Positions 12,001 to 18,000 of a DNA stretch of 40,807 bases are shown piece after piece. The position numbers are program-made. This stretch comes from Candidatus Micrarchaeota archaeon (GTDB lineage: Archaea > B1Sed10-29), in assembly GCA_964388265.1 (NCBI GenBank), contig CAYLXZ010000004.1:1-40807 (forward strand), written 5' to 3'. Each line of letters begins with the position of its first letter. Position 1 is the first letter of the stretch.

Positions 12001-15000
12001 GTTTTGTTTTTCTTTTCTTCTTTTTCTATTTCTTTTAGGCTTCTGTCTATGATTTTTTCAGCGATTTCTGTACCTATTTCTTCTTTTTTTATCAGTGAAT
12101 TATATAGTTTCCCGAGTTTTAGAGGTCCTTCTTCTTTTTGGATTATTTCTCTTAGTTTTTTCTTTGTTTCAGGTAGTTCTTTTTTTATGAGGTTCTCTGT
12201 CTTTTTCTCTTTTCCTCTTTTTCCTGTTTTTTTCGCTTGTTTGTTTTTATTTATCTTCTTTTTCATTGTGAATCATATTTAAATTGTTCTTCTGGATTAA
12301 AACTCTTTCGTAGTGATTGTTGTGGTGGTGTTTTCTATGGTTATTTTTTTATCTCTCGGTGATTAAATTATAGTGAGTAATATGAATTTGATTTACTGCG
12401 CTACACCTGGTCGAATAAGTGACCGTAAAGAGGAGATAATGGATTTTGTTGAGGAGAAGGGAGATGCTCCTTTCCATCCTTTCCAGGCTTACCCCTATGA
12501 GAGGTTCGAGGGAGGAGAGCCTGGTAGGGAGAACACGATTGAGTTCTGTAAGAGAGCTGTAGATATCTGTGATGAACTATGGTTATTTGGAGTGTCTGAA
12601 GGAACTTTAACTGAGTTAAAGTATGCTTTGGAGGAAGATAAGCCTGTTAGGAAGTTCTTGGAGTTTGATCCGGATTGGAGAGAAAGATATAAGGAGCTTA
12701 AAAGAGATCGAGGTGATCTCTTAGAGAAAATTGAATAGAGTTATTCTTTTATTCTTGTTATTTCTTTGTGGTCCATGACTTGTTTGAATTCCACTGTTTG
12801 TCCTTGTTCTATCTTGTCAGCTAGGTCGTCTGGCTTGTCGAGCTCGAAGTTCTCGTAGCTTTCCATGTCCATTAGCTGTACTCTGTCTCCCATGTCTGCT
12901 ACTACTTGTGCTTCTTTTCTGATTACTCGAGGTATCTTTGCTCTTTCATCGGTTGGCTTGACGAACTGTTTCTTTGATCCGTCTATCACGGATTCTGTTT
13001 TTACTCTTGCTTTTGCATGTCCGTGTTTACCTGGTCTGCTGACTGAGATTGACTTGATTTTGCAGGGTACGTCGTCTATCATGACTACGTCTCCTTCTTT
13101 TAGGTCTTTTACTTCTCCCATTTCGTATTTAGCCATTTTTCCACTCTCCTTGTTTTCTAGTTTCAGTTTCCTGTATTATTAACTGAATCCTGGTTTTTAA
13201 TCTTCGGTTCTTATGTGGAGAACATCACGATCGCGGCAAGAGCCAGAGCCATACCTATTCCTTGTTTGAAGCTAGGAGTTTCACCTAGGAAGATGCTCGC
13301 TAGCATGATGGTTACTAAGGGGTATAGAGCTGTCATGGCAGCTACCACAGATACCTTGCCTTTGTTCACCGCGAAAAGGAAGAAAAGAGTTCCTAGAACA
13401 CCTGCTACTCCTGTTAAGATAGCGAATGTGAATCCCTTTGGATGGAATTGAAGGCCTGATCCAATGAAAACAAATATAAATGCTCCTATGATAGCCATGC
13501 CTAGAGCCCCGTAGACCAAAGCGCTCTTCGGGTCAATATGATTCGTAGCTAGCTTTGGGAAAAAACCCCATAAGCCCCAGAGCAACAGCGCGACAAAAGC
13601 AGAAAATATCCATTCATTCATCTTCAATCCTCTCCTCTATGTCTTCTATATCTTCTTCATCCGTCTTATAGCTCTTCACACCCAGGTAATAAGCGGCTAA
13701 CAGCCCGATTCCGGTTAGTATCCAGAACTCTATCAATCTATCCAGGATCGTGTGAGCACCCGCACCAGCAAGAGCTACTCCCGCGGTAGATAGAATAACC
13801 AACCTAACTGTTTCAACCGATCCAAGCCCACCTGGAAGGAAAGGAATCAAACCAGCGGTCTGAGATAAAACAATTAAAGAAATTATCAATACAGGATGAA
13901 CCTCCAGGCCAATAGCAAGGAACACGAAGTAAGCTCTCAGGATATCGAAAACCCACATCACTCCAGACATCGACATCGACTTCAACCAAAGCCCAGGTTT
14001 CTTCAAATACGTTTTCAAGTTCTCACTATGTTCCCTGAAGTCTTGTTTGAATTTCTCTTCAGCTTCCTTCAAAGGCTTAAACTTCTTGATAAGTCTCTCA
14101 AGCTTGTTAATAAGCCATATACCTATCTTTAATCCAAAGGTCTCCGAAGTAACAGTGTAGACAATTAAGAGTATTCCAAATACTCCGAGCACACAGATCA
14201 ATAACAATATACTAAGCACCCAGATCGGTAGATGGAAGAGAAATACAGCTGAAACAATTCCAATGAACGTAATTAAGATGAAGAAAGCCATGTCAAATAT
14301 TCTTTCAGCTATAATGGTGGCGAGAGTTTCCTTCGTACTCCTACCAGTTTCCTTATTAAGGAAGTAGCTTCTAGCTGCCTCTCCACCTGTCCTAGCACTA
14401 GGAGTTAAGTTAGATATAGATATACCTGCGAAAGTTATCTGAAGAAGCTTCCAAGTAGATACATCCATTCCAGCGTCATCTACCACTACTTTCCAACGAC
14501 CCATCAAAGCCAAGACGGATAAGAGCTCGAATCCAATAGCTATAGCTAGGTAACGTAAATTAGCCATGGAAAAAGTTGAAATAACTCTTTCCTTACCCAT
14601 CAATAGACCGATAGCGAATATGACTACTAGACCCAAACCAACTGATGTGAATAAGAGTTTCCTCAAGTCCAGTTCAACCACCTTCTACACGTCTTAAAAC
14701 ACTTAAGGTTTAATTACCTTAATGTCCTTAACTAAACAGTGAACTCGGTGCAGCTAACAGGTGAGATAATTGTTTGAAAGAGTGAAGAAGAAACTGAAAA
14801 GAAAGGAAGAAGAGGAAACCCTGACACACGTAGCTCTGTTCATAGACGGTCCGAACATGCTCAGAGGCGAGTTCGACCTGGATCTAGCCGAAGTAAAAGC
14901 AAGGCTAGAGAAAATAGGTTCCTTGAAAGTAGGGAAAGTTTACCTAGATCAATACGCACCAGAGAAACTCATAGAAGCAGTTACAAACCAAGGGTTCGAA

Positions 15001-18000
15001 CCAACAGTAATAACAACAGCAGACGTGGACGCACCAATGGCAGCCGATGCAATGGAAGCAGTATACAACGAAAACATAGACATAATCTCCCTAATGACAA
15101 GAGACTCCGACTTCCAAAGAGTACTGCTAAAAGCAAAAGAAAAAGGAAAAGGAACAGTCGTAGTAGGATCAGAACCAATAGCAGCAGCACTAAAAAACAC
15201 GGCGGACGAAGTAATATCACTATAAACCAAAGAACAAACCAAAGAACATATTTAAAAAACAACTCATTAATATCTTACAGGTGAACAGATGAACGTTCCA
15301 ACAGGCGAACCAATAGAAAGAGGAACAAAAGTACCAAAAATAAATCCAAGACAATACATAGAAAGCCTGATGGACAAAGATTTCGACGGATACATCTCCA
15401 TAACCATAAAAGGAGAAACAGGACTAGAAGAAGGAACCCTAGTATACCAAGAAGGCGAGATAGTGAGTTCAGACTACCTGTACTTCCGATACAATAAACA
15501 ATACAAAGCAAAAGACGGATTAAAAAGAACATTAAACGCTTTTAATTCACGTAATGGGATAATAGACACCTACAAACTATCATCACATCAAACACAGTTA
15601 ATACTAACAATGAACAGAGACTGCAAGCTAATGGAACCGATAAACAAGGAAAAACTAGACATACCAAGGAAATTCACACTAGAATACGAAGAAGAACTAA
15701 TAGAAGAAGAAACAAAACAACTAACAAGAGAACAACTCATGAAGAAATACGGATTAACAGGACTCAAAGAAAGCGAAGATACAGGAGGACAACTCATCCA
15801 AAAAGCCAGAGAAGAACACCGAACACTCGAAAAATTCCTGGAAAAAGAGAAGACAAAAAAATAAGGAAACACAAAACAAAGTGATAGAATGACATTCAAA
15901 GAAAAAATATACCACATCGTAGGAAAAAAAACACCAGAAGAACAGATAAGAGAAAGAATAAAAATAATTCAACAACTAGTCCAAGAAAAAAGAAACATGG
16001 ATAAAAGCCCTGAAACGGACATAGAGAAAATAAAACAAGAATTCTACCTAGACGGACTAGCAATAGCAGACGAAAACGGAGAAATACTAGAATCCAATGG
16101 ATCAAAACAAGACTTCAAAGAAATACTAACCGAGACAGGATTACTGAACCAAGTTAAAGAAAATCTACCCGACACAGAGATACTCAAGATACGTAACAAC
16201 GGAAACAACCACATCATGTACAGGGAAAATGGAAAAGTATACTTCATGAAGACCCCTGGAAACGTTTCAATTCCAGAGATAAAGAGAATCACACAGAAAA
16301 TAAGAGGAGAGAACTAGAATGAACTCTGAAGAAACACGGAAAATATGCATAGCCTCAGGAAAAGGAGGCGTAGGGAAAACAGTGGTAACAGCAAACCTAG
16401 GAATCTCCCTAGCCCAATCAGGAGTAAAAACAATACTAGTAGACGCGGACCTAGACATGGCTAACCTAGAAATGATACTAGGAATGGAAGGAAGACCAAT
16501 AACACTACAAGACGTGATGAAAGACGAAGCAGACATAGAAGACTCAATATACAACGTAAGAGGCCAAGAAAACCTCAAGTTCGTACCAGCAGGAATCTCC
16601 CCAAACCAATTCAGACGAATGGATCCAGATAAATTCAAAAGAATAATAGACCAATTAACAGATAAAACCCAGATGCTAATACTCGACTCACCAGCAGGAA
16701 TAGGAAAAGACACAATCTCCTGCTTCAACGCATGCGAAGAAACACTACTAGTAGTCACACCCGAATCAATATCAGCAGCAGACGCATCAAAAGCAAAAAA
16801 CGCATCAGAAAAAATGGGAGCAGAAGTAAAAGGAGCAATAGTGAACCGAATACACGAAAAAAGATACGGAATGAACGACAAAGAAATAACATCCTTCCTA
16901 AACACACCAATACTTGTAAAGATAAAGGAAGATCCAAAGGTAAGGAAAGCTGTATCTGAAAAGGAACCAATGATCGACCGCTACCCAGAACACGAATTCA
17001 GCCAAAGAATAAAAGAACTAACAAAAGAATTAATAGGGAAACGACATATTAAAAAGAAGCCAAAGAAGAAAGGCTTACTATCAAAACTAAAAGGAATATT
17101 CAGCAGGTGATATAAATGCCAGAACGACCATTCGACCTTTTAAACGACTCGATCGGCAACCAAGTGCTAGTGAATCTAAGAACAGGGAAAGAAATAAACG
17201 GAAAACTAGAAGCATTCGACCAACACATGAACCTAGTACTATCAGATGCCACAGAACTCCAAGATGGAGAAAGAAAACAAAAGATAGGTAAAGTAATCGT
17301 AAGAGGAGACAACATCTTCTACGTATCTACCTAAAGGACTCCTCCAAGACTCATGGGCCCGTAGATCAGTGGAAGATCGTGCCCTTGGCGAACCTACTTT
17401 TATTAACTTGACTAGTGATCCAAACTGGGCAAGGCCGTGGGTTCAAATCCCACCGGGTCCATCTTCAAATTTTTTCTATCCAAAGGTTCATCGCCCCTCC
17501 CCAGCGTAACTTCCAATATCCTTCTTTTGCAAACTTTTTCTAAAAGTTTATGTAGTGCCTAAAACCCATTTCCTTTTTAAGTGACTTTTCCTTATTTTAG
17601 ATGGAGGTGAAACAATCAACAAAAAAATCATTATTCCCGTTACTCTGCTCTTTGCTGGATTATTCCTCACAGGATGCGTTAGCGGAGGACAACCACAGAC
17701 ACCAGGAGGAGTAGTAAAAGCATTCGTGAATGAAATGAACCAAGGGAACTTCCAAGCAGCAGCACAGTACATGACTAGTGAACAAGCTCAAGAGATAGAG
17801 AACGCAAACCAAACAGAAATGCAGAAAGCTAACCAAATGATGCAAGCAATGGATATCTCAGTCAAAGGAATCCAACAAGAAAACGTACAGGGAGACACGG
17901 CAAACGTAGTAGCAGAGCTAGAGATTTCAATGCAAGATCAAACACAGACCTCGAGCTCAACATTCAACCTAGTTAAAGAGAACGGTGAATGGAAGATACA

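Follow-up and report, generated by a model that had tools for sequence, protein, structure and literature searches.

A conserved DUF2226, roadblock-fold and MinD gene set in a Micrarchaeota genome as a candidate Min-like positioning switch

In bacteria, the ATP-bound form of MinD dimerises and binds the membrane through its C-terminal helix, while MinE has an amphipathic helix at its N-terminus, followed by another helix and a dimer domain. For archaea, the accessible parts of 2026 preprints (PMC13228585; 10.64898/2026.07.23.738820) describe placement of the Haloferax division ring by the Dip/Arco (OapABC) oscillator, and report that Thermococci and roughly half the DPANN phyla lack this system. 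The Haloferax MinDs, the only archaeal MinDs tested, do not place the Z-ring, and MinD4 positions the motility machinery, according to the available portion of 10.1101/2020.04.03.021790. The tested archaeal members affect motility and shape; the accessible text describes no activator of archaeal MinD, and reports no phenotype for HVO_0596, the proposed partner of MinD2. Roadblock proteins form another relevant family. The initial annotation of the present locus stated that they normally partner small GTPases, which is too narrow, since the part of PMC4316618 open to us predicts that the family regulates NTPases generally; it also counts 328 of 749 MglB homologues as orphans.

The window, i.e. 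the whole stretch of 40,807 nt that was analysed, carries the five-gene operon annotated earlier at 14770..17334 (Table 1). The five ORFs are co-directional, with intergenic gaps of 63, 24, 1 and 5 nt, and a GGTGA/GTGA/GAGG-type stretch lies upstream of each start. The tRNA gene behind them was not called by ARAGORN; its anticodon together with G3-U70 suggests tRNA-Ala(GGC).

Table 1. Features of the operon and its downstream flank; X denotes the roadblock-fold protein.
Feature	Position	Strand	Basis
NYN/LabA-family predicted RNase	14770..15225	+	TIGR00288, over cut-off
DUF2226 protein, 191 aa	15289..15864	+	PF09987, E 6.7e-15
X, 142-aa ORF, roadblock fold	15889..16317	+	structure model; without Pfam family
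Archaeal MinD	16319..17110	+	TIGR01969 minD_arch, E 1.4e-78
MinD C-terminal basic amphipathic helix, predicted membrane-targeting sequence	17066..17107	+	hydrophobic moment
Lsm/Sm-like protein	17116..17334	+	PF01423 LSM
tRNA gene with ~35-nt anticodon-loop intron	17355..17461	+	Rfam RF00005, 54.6 bits

The MinD protein scores 263.5 bits against a curated TIGR01969 cut-off of 201.75, and its nearest solved structure is MinD-1 (1hyq; E 1.7e-57). It had been described as intact, and this is borne out: the signature Lys15, Walker A, Asp42/Asp44, Asn49 and Asp155 are all present, K15, D42, D44, N49 and D155 are kept in 57/57 orthologues, and GKGGxGK occurs in all 27 MinDs of the host phylum. The C-terminal helix has a hydrophobic moment of 0.53 (mean 0.62, n=27) and lies over threshold in 51 of 57 orthologues, counted with a window wider than the control's; it is predicted to be a membrane-targeting sequence.

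In its structure model (pLDDT 83.9), X appears to comprise a basic amphipathic N-terminal helix (residues 3-11), a second helix (16-37) and a roadblock-fold domain (~43-141). The fold order alpha-beta-beta-alpha-beta-beta-beta-alpha is nearest to solved roadblocks. The best match is LokiRagO (Z 11.5, rmsd 2.2, 92 aligned residues), followed by Streptomyces roadblock (Z 11.0 and 10.8) and MglB (Z 10.1), with roadblock, Rag and LAMTOR entries spanning Z 11.5-9.5. The first profilin (Z 8.7), GAF (8.0) and longin-titled (7.3) entries fall about 3-4 Z units under the top roadblocks; we therefore retain the roadblock fold assigned earlier and reject a profilin, GAF or longin identity. Pfam Robl_LC7 was detected in none of 24 X members, and X belongs to no Pfam family; as Robl_LC7 was likewise found in 0/31 host-phylum genomes, X is the only roadblock detected there. 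Dynein roadblock light chains make up six of the eight weak PDB matches of the pooled X profile (E 0.08-0.62), an Atlas match of 0.88 leads to a cluster with 45% Robl_LC7, and the Iainarchaeota X orthologues were confirmed by hhalign (99.8%). A basic amphipathic N-helix is present in 50/57 X orthologues versus 47/404 control ORFs; that of the X in the window scores 0.37, below the threshold of 0.45. A KKT..E..R stretch had prompted the idea of a MinE-like contact helix. This was rejected, because position 23, which is R in 14, K in 8 and N in 2 host-phylum members (n=24), is Q or H in 33/33 Iainarchaeota, and hhalign gives the X profile a MinE likeness of 0.4%; the likeness is one of layout only.

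The DUF2226 protein has a putative PATAN/DUF4388-like N-terminal domain (~residues 1-120) and a helical tail. The weak likeness proposed before was recovered: PF14332 (DUF4388) matched 4/28 members at E<=0.5 (best 9.4e-4) and 4/35 at E<=0.05 (best 8.4e-5), and an Atlas match to PATAN/DUF4388 reached 0.80. Among solved folds the best Z was 6.0, and Foldseek returned none at E<=0.001, which is not proof of a new fold. DUF2226 is found in 29/31 host-phylum genomes, the same count as before, and in 147/151 Iainarchaeota genomes; it is single-copy, and its loss from an X-bearing locus was never seen. Among control archaea it matched only in M. jannaschii, a genome without OapB. MJ0548, upstream of the M. 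jannaschii MinD, was considered as a DUF2226 protein and discarded; it is Connectase according to the accessible part of PMC7980362. A metagenome scan using Micrarchaeota-labelled DUF2226 gave no locus.

The order NYN-DUF2226-X-MinD-Lsm was found across the 31-genome host phylum, as had been claimed, and is not confined to it, being present in Iainarchaeota too. DUF2226 lies <=0.9 kb upstream of MinD in 27/27, 36/37 and 19/20 loci of three sets (82/84 in total), and almost every genome has one copy each of DUF2226, X and MinD. The gene order may go back to a single inheritance in the two phyla, so that these counts may not be independent. X is present in 24 of the 27 host-phylum loci (one shortened, judged by eye); in the other three, as noted previously, DUF2226 abuts MinD. 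X has disappeared on at least two occasions; searches of four X-less genomes found no copy in another place, and DUF2226 closes up on MinD in four X-less loci. The three X-less MinDs of the host phylum form one clade, with end branches of 0.57-1.04 against a median of 0.43.

Because MinD stands beside DUF2226 and a roadblock protein, while the known archaeal division-site system was not found, these genes are candidates for another mechanism that positions the division ring or pili. On balance, we think that DUF2226, X and MinD probably constitute a Min-like positioning switch at the inner membrane face, DUF2226 being the core partner and X an accessory regulator. An ATP-bound MinD dimer would dock on the membrane through its C-terminal helix, by analogy with bacterial MinD. 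DUF2226, being kept even without X, would be the core partner, either cargo or adaptor. X, probably a roadblock dimer that its N-terminal helix tethers to the membrane, would play an accessory part: it would either stimulate hydrolysis or anchor MinD, and may do so by way of DUF2226. The genes for NYN, Lsm and the tRNA would be passengers in the same transcript.

It is quite possible, however, that DUF2226 and X act as a PATAN-roadblock pair independent of MinD, either serving as a scaffold or cooperating with a different NTPase (KaiC-like or a pilus ATPase), MinD being a mere neighbour in an old housekeeping block with Lsm, tRNA and ribosomal-protein genes. X follows DUF2226 directly wherever it is present (24/24, 40/40 and 18/18 loci), and both breaks of the operon fall between DUF2226(-X) and MinD-Lsm, MinD-Lsm lying on another contig in one genome (G056) and the block being split by an inserted gene in the other (G108). 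A PATAN protein adjoining MglB is already described in the accessible part of PMC4316618, methanogen roadblock genes adjoin RAD55/KaiC-like ATPases (PMC4858521 Table S4), and several P-loop ORFs of 254-299 aa in the host genome resemble KaiC-like proteins by eye. These observations also qualify the earlier designation of MinD as partner of X by gene order: the operon is conserved, but the invariant neighbour of X is DUF2226, the tightest neighbour of MinD is Lsm, and X is dispensable. On the other hand, the breaks concern only 2/84 loci, DUF2226 closes up on MinD once X is gone, and a roadblock-MinD-NYN neighbourhood recurs in the distant Methanocella arvoryzae, with the roadblock gene three upstream of MinD and the NYN gene two downstream (PMC4858521 Table S4). 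Elsewhere, neither DUF2226 nor X appeared, among the matches listed, at the seven top-scoring metagenome MinD loci (E<1e-52, archaeal by eye), nor among five tested neighbours of the Thermococcus nautili plasmid MinD; the metagenome MinD matches listed were mostly distant loci, probably bacterial.

As to the cargo of a Min-like switch, FtsZ was detected in 30/31 host-phylum genomes, and SepF in the host genome. Meanwhile, DipB/OapB was found in 0/31 host-phylum and 0/151 Iainarchaeota genomes, and DipC/OapC over cut-off in 0/31 host-phylum genomes; the Haloferax and Methanosarcina controls match in both searches. The combination of FtsZ in 30/31 genomes with DipB/ArcoB in 0/31 and 0/151 is new. 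The FtsZ ring, with the switch standing in for Dip/Arco, is a tentative candidate for the cargo. A more specific version, in which a MinD-based membrane oscillator places the FtsZ ring instead of the Dip/Arco GTPase system, the roadblock dimer taking the MinE role of ATPase activator and the PATAN-like protein the MinC role of FtsZ antagonist, is doubtful.

Pili are a rather unlikely cargo: the switch would then resemble FleN/FlhG or Haloferax MinD4 in placing or limiting type IV pili, here for attachment to a host, without a part in division. Pilus-type ATPases occur in 31/31 host-phylum genomes, PMC4858521 regards the arCOG00589 MinD as regulating pili and mentions pilus loci that contain roadblock genes, and one locus (L112) carries a pilin-like surface gene, identified by eye, between DUF2226 and MinD. 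However, no pilus gene is among the five core genes, and whereas the module is present once in nearly every genome, the number of pilus ATPases ranges from 2 to 8. Any other cargo is very improbable.

It also seems improbable that the whole operon is one machine, in which NYN nuclease and Lsm make up an RNA-processing complex that MinD and X keep at the membrane. Lsm comes next after MinD in all assessable loci of three sets (26/26, 30/30 and 19/19; 75/75 in total) and stays paired with it in both rearranged genomes; the NYN acidic motifs are retained (DGPN 27/27, DxD 27/27, RD[SA]DF 21/27), and the Methanocella MinD too has a NYN gene nearby. NYN is immediately 5' of DUF2226 in 27/28 host-phylum loci and in 23/35 and 17/20 loci of two Iainarchaeota sets, but it is missing from the locus in 11/35 and 3/20 of the latter, its N-terminus is amphipathic in only 10/27, and other archaeal-looking metagenome MinD loci had no adjoining Lsm among the matches listed. 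Given the 75/75 adjacency of MinD and Lsm, tight linkage here needs no shared function; NYN and Lsm are each probable passengers, and a role of Lsm as regulator of MinD is unlikely. It is highly improbable that X acts as an ordinary MglB-like GAP, with a small GTPase that the assemblies lack or the profiles overlooked. The host genome is 82% complete and the Roc profile, having no match in Haloferax, is blind to DipA-type GTPases, but stand-alone Ras/Roc/Arf-type GTPases were found neither in the host genome, in agreement with the initial annotation, nor in four genomes 91-98% complete, and Roc matches are confined to frames of 390-613 aa in the host phylum and number 0/61 in Iainarchaeota at 1e-5, while seven short Arf/MMR_HSR1 frames in the host and the four genomes read by eye as kinases, AAA ATPase, RbgA-like or Drg-like.

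The Min-like switch draws on the DUF2226-MinD proximity, the single copies, the lack of a detected GTPase, the N-helix of X and FtsZ without DipB; further points are the M. jannaschii DUF2226, the Methanocella neighbourhood and the long branches of X-less MinDs. Against it count the MinD-Lsm adjacency, both breaks, the X losses, position 23, the lack of profile likeness to MinE, the low N-helix score in the window, metagenome MinDs without DUF2226 or X, the Haloferax MinDs, the presence of pilus-type ATPases in all 31 genomes and possible shared inheritance.

Our search, with most subscription journals outside it, found no relevant paper on DUF2226, PF09987 or Iainarchaeota MinD with FtsZ and, among the titles listed, none on this operon. 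The locus addresses the question of division-site choice in FtsZ-using archaea without Dip/Arco, and offers three small soluble proteins for liposome work with FtsZ1 of the same genome. If the division reading is true, this would be the first MinD-driven archaeal division-site system and the first roadblock acting on a ParA/MinD ATPase. If MinD is bound, the reach of roadblock regulators would grow beyond small GTPases and dynein to take in ParA/MinD ATPases; if not, the locus would be an orphan pair of PATAN and roadblock proteins within an ancient gene block.

Compared with bacterial MinCDE, the locus likewise combines a deviant Walker A ATPase, ending in an amphipathic helix, with two small, dedicated genes of one operon, and X resembles MinE in layout, having an amphipathic helix at the N-terminus, another helix behind it and what is probably a dimer domain. 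However, no MinE was found in the host genome, X is a dispensable roadblock-fold protein without MinE profile likeness, and neither the X nor the DUF2226 profile matched the one MinC sequence compared (DUF2226 E above 5). As in the MglA-MglB(-PATAN) modules and Streptomyces conservons described in the available part of PMC4316618, a roadblock protein stands by a PATAN-like protein and a P-loop NTPase; in contrast, the NTPase here is a MinD ATPase rather than a Ras-family GTPase, no coupled small GTPase was found, X is under Pfam Robl_LC7 detection and has a 40-residue N-terminal extension, and no histidine kinase is among the five genes. With Haloferax Dip/Arco, as presented in the accessible preprint text (PMC13228585; 10.64898/2026.07.23.738820), the locus shares the format of a three-gene set, a membrane-binding NTPase with two small partners in FtsZ-using archaea; unlike that system, with which it has no protein in common, its function is inferred rather than shown. 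Finally, its MinD belongs to the same subfamily (TIGR01969/arCOG00589) as AfMinD-1, Pyrococcus MinD and Haloferax MinD2/MinD4, whereas the tested members, in the literature accessible to us, act on motility and shape.

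The operon in the window is real. Its five ORFs lie on the forward strand where the initial annotation had placed them: an NYN gene (TIGR00288) comes first, DUF2226 and the unassigned 142-aa ORF X stand in the middle, and an archaeal MinD and an Lsm gene close the operon. The intergenic gaps are 63, 24, 1 and 5 nt in that order, and a purine-rich, ribosome-binding-like stretch precedes all five ORFs. An intron-bearing tRNA gene lies downstream. In most loci of the phylum, an orthologue of the neighbouring LPG_synthase_TM gene adjoins the operon. Many relatives carry a TatD-type-looking nuclease gene (245-256 aa, labelled by eye) before NYN, which is absent there in the window and the window's family. 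The genome measures 726 kb at 82% completeness, and the 31 genomes of the phylum sample, which include it, range from 0.3 to 1.3 Mb. Some close DUF2226 relatives are labelled Diapherotrites or Micrarchaeota in the sources, and the phylum appears to be of DPANN type.

The reported phylum-wide conservation of the operon holds, and its range proved wider than reported, extending to a second phylum, the Iainarchaeota. DUF2226 is present in 29 of the 31 genomes, and X occurs in 24 of the phylum's 27 DUF2226-to-MinD loci; in the other three, DUF2226 abuts MinD. A profile search covering 1.84 billion representatives yielded a second X clade (hhalign 99.8%), mapping to Iainarchaeota. In Iainarchaeota loci selected on X, DUF2226 is directly upstream in 40/40 and MinD downstream in 37/40, and two of the three lacking MinD stop at a contig edge. 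DUF2226 was found in 147 of 151 sampled Iainarchaeota genomes; twenty of these loci, selected by DUF2226 with a bias to the most divergent ones, carry X in 18 and MinD in all 20 windows, and the two sets may share genomes. A MinD tree built from 29 of 63 rows separates the two phyla; the three X-less MinDs of the phylum form one clade (99/91), and another X-less MinD (locus L114) falls inside Iainarchaeota. X-less MinDs thus occupy two separate places, which means at least two losses of X. A search of four X-less genomes, one with a completeness of just 66%, did not find X at another position.

The roadblock fold initially assigned to X was borne out. In a model built from 24 orthologues (pLDDT 83.9), two N-terminal helices (residues 3-11 and 16-37) are followed by a helix-2 strands-helix-3 strands-helix pattern. 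Among 48,161 chains, the best structural match was the LokiRagO roadblock domain (Z 11.5, rmsd 2.2, 92 residues), followed by Streptomyces roadblocks (11.0 and 10.8), MP1-p14 (10.8), Asgard roadblocks (10.5) and MglB (10.1), whereas the first profilin (8.7) and a GAF domain (8.0) scored lower; Foldseek concurs. With a profile of 57 X orthologues, six of the eight weak PDB matches were dynein roadblock light chains. This ranking, together with the light chains, favours roadblock over profilin or GAF. Pfam Robl_LC7 matched no X member tested; it is the modelled fold that identifies X as a roadblock, not a Pfam sequence match. The N-terminal helix is basic and amphipathic in 17/24 orthologues of the phylum and 33/33 of Iainarchaeota, against 47/404 control ORFs; that of the window's own X scores 0.37, below the 0.45 threshold.

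Judged by sequence, the MinD ATPase is intact and probably binds the membrane. All 57 MinDs of X-bearing loci share K15, the Walker A glycines and K20, D42, D44, N49 and D155, which align with their counterparts in Paracoccus MinD; in bacterial MinD, these residues serve in dimerisation and hydrolysis. A C-terminal basic amphipathic helix passes the test in 51/57, with a window wider than the control's. Two MinDs extend beyond the membrane helix in long tails rich in Pro, Ala and Thr, and in four Iainarchaeota frames (731-767 aa) the Walker A lysine is immediately followed by an insertion of ~470 aa that by eye looks like an intein. On a Thermococcus nautili plasmid there is a MinD that belongs to the same subfamily (profile E 1.8e-84); the five neighbours tested include neither DUF2226 nor X. 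The window's genome has two other KGG-type P-loop ATPases in tandem (302 and 276 aa), both distant from the MinD profile.

By analogy, we favour with modest confidence, as the most likely reading, a Min-like switch of DUF2226, X and MinD. ATP-bound MinD would sit on the membrane, DUF2226 would be its retained core partner, and X would act as a membrane-tethered accessory regulator. The initial annotation had made MinD the partner of X by gene order. The linkage is conserved, DUF2226 lying upstream of MinD, no more than 0.9 kb away, in 82 of the 84 loci that could be assessed; however, it is weaker evidence than was held, since Lsm directly follows MinD in 75/75 loci, both broken loci part MinD and its Lsm from DUF2226, and X tracks DUF2226, which precedes it wherever it occurs. 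In one broken case (genome G056), X remains with DUF2226 on a contig other than MinD's. Neither DUF2226 nor X lies near MinD in the best seven metagenome MinD loci among the matches listed, archaeal by eye. The main rival reading, less probable but a serious contender, has a PATAN-roadblock pair working independently, with an unrelated MinD-Lsm block next to it. DUF2226 is weakly DUF4388/PATAN-like. PATAN adjoining MglB is an association described in passages of PMC4316618, which cites Makarova 2006 and Koonin and Aravind 2000. An RNA-processing complex is an unlikely reading of the operon.

Residue 57 of MinD and residue 23 of X change jointly, from Glu57 with Arg/Lys23 in the phylum to Gln/His at both sites in Iainarchaeota, which could reflect contact or only shared ancestry. 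At one locus (L112), large pilin-type-looking surface genes flank DUF2226-NYN, one of them being inserted between DUF2226 and MinD; X was not found in that genome (G108).

The annotated absence of a small GTPase was upheld: none was found in the phylum or in 61 Iainarchaeota, the Roc profile being blind, per controls, to the type of DipA, the GTPase of Dip/Arco (the Haloferax division-site oscillator OapABC). Roc matches occurred in 17 of the phylum's 31 genomes, all within frames of 390-613 aa, and in 0/61 Iainarchaeota at 1e-5. In the window's genome, ATP_bind_1 stayed below cut-off, and none of 54 frames in a Walker A inventory reads as a stand-alone Ras/Arf protein. Seven of the short Arf/MMR_HSR1 frames in this genome and in four others, 91-98% complete, were inspected and by eye resemble kinases, an AAA ATPase and RbgA-like or Drg-like proteins. 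That a GTPase partner of X was missed is very improbable. The window's genome also holds an open frame of 3,789 aa whose C-terminal end lies close to a Walker A motif.

Coordinates of features in the window, its genome (G000, contig C2) and loci of relatives (L numbers)
Feature	Location	Strand	Remark
LPG_synthase_TM membrane protein gene	window 13614-14681	-	divergent from operon
tRNA gene, read as tRNA-Ala(GGC)	window 17355-17461	+	~35-nt intron in anticodon loop; Rfam match, missed by ARAGORN
KGG-type ATPase pair	G000:C2:15987-17701	-	
3,789-aa frame	G000:C2:26027-37393	-	
TatD-type-looking gene	L006:281-1030 region		like positions in L008, L009, L011, L012, L014-L017
Shortened X, 128 aa	L037:3818-4201 (G017)		strand 2 and helix 2 largely missing; NYN absent at locus
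MinD with long tail	L054:2383-3657, L055:5223-6401		
MinD with insertion	L063:3339-5555, L075:5476-7794, L091:5465-7771, L127:479-2746		
Plasmid MinD	L106:5995-6789		
Pilin-type-looking flanking genes	L112:755-3205, 4379-6001		

The cargo of the Min-like switch is tentatively the FtsZ ring or, more doubtfully, pili. FtsZ is present in 30 of the phylum's 31 genomes, mostly in two copies, SepF in the window's genome, and pilus-type ATPases in 31/31 (2-8 each). A portion of PMC4858521 classes this MinD family among pilus regulators and mentions roadblock genes within pilus loci, and in passages of 10.1101/2020.04.03.021790 and PMC11588486 the archaeal MinDs tested so far concern motility and shape, not the Z-ring. 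The Haloferax ring is placed by Dip/Arco, according to passages of two preprints (PMC13228585; 10.64898/2026.07.23.738820), which both report its absence from Thermococci; the first adds Methanococci and the second about half of DPANN phyla. The DipB/OapB family matched in 0/31 genomes of the phylum and 0/151 Iainarchaeota, and DipC/OapC over cut-off in 0/31; as controls, both match in Haloferax and Methanosarcina. DUF2226 matches in M. jannaschii and not in Haloferax or Methanosarcina, a DUF2226-Dip pattern that rests on few independent lineages. From genome content, a role of the operon in division is possible. One row of the 2016 Table S4 (PMC4858521) gives a Methanocella locus with roadblock, MinD and NYN; if this is the same module, the DUF2226-Dip pattern is not strict, since Methanomicrobia have Dip.

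No paper on DUF2226 or the NYN-DUF2226-X-MinD-Lsm operon was found in the literature searched. The operon is neither a Dip/Arco nor an MglAB system, no GTPase having been found for the latter. The layout of X recalls that of MinE, but position 23, mostly basic in the phylum, carries Q or H in each of the 33 Iainarchaeota orthologues, and the X profile shows no likeness to MinE. Having no MinE, the operon is not MinCDE, though it may work like MinCDE, the Min-like mechanism being proposed by analogy.
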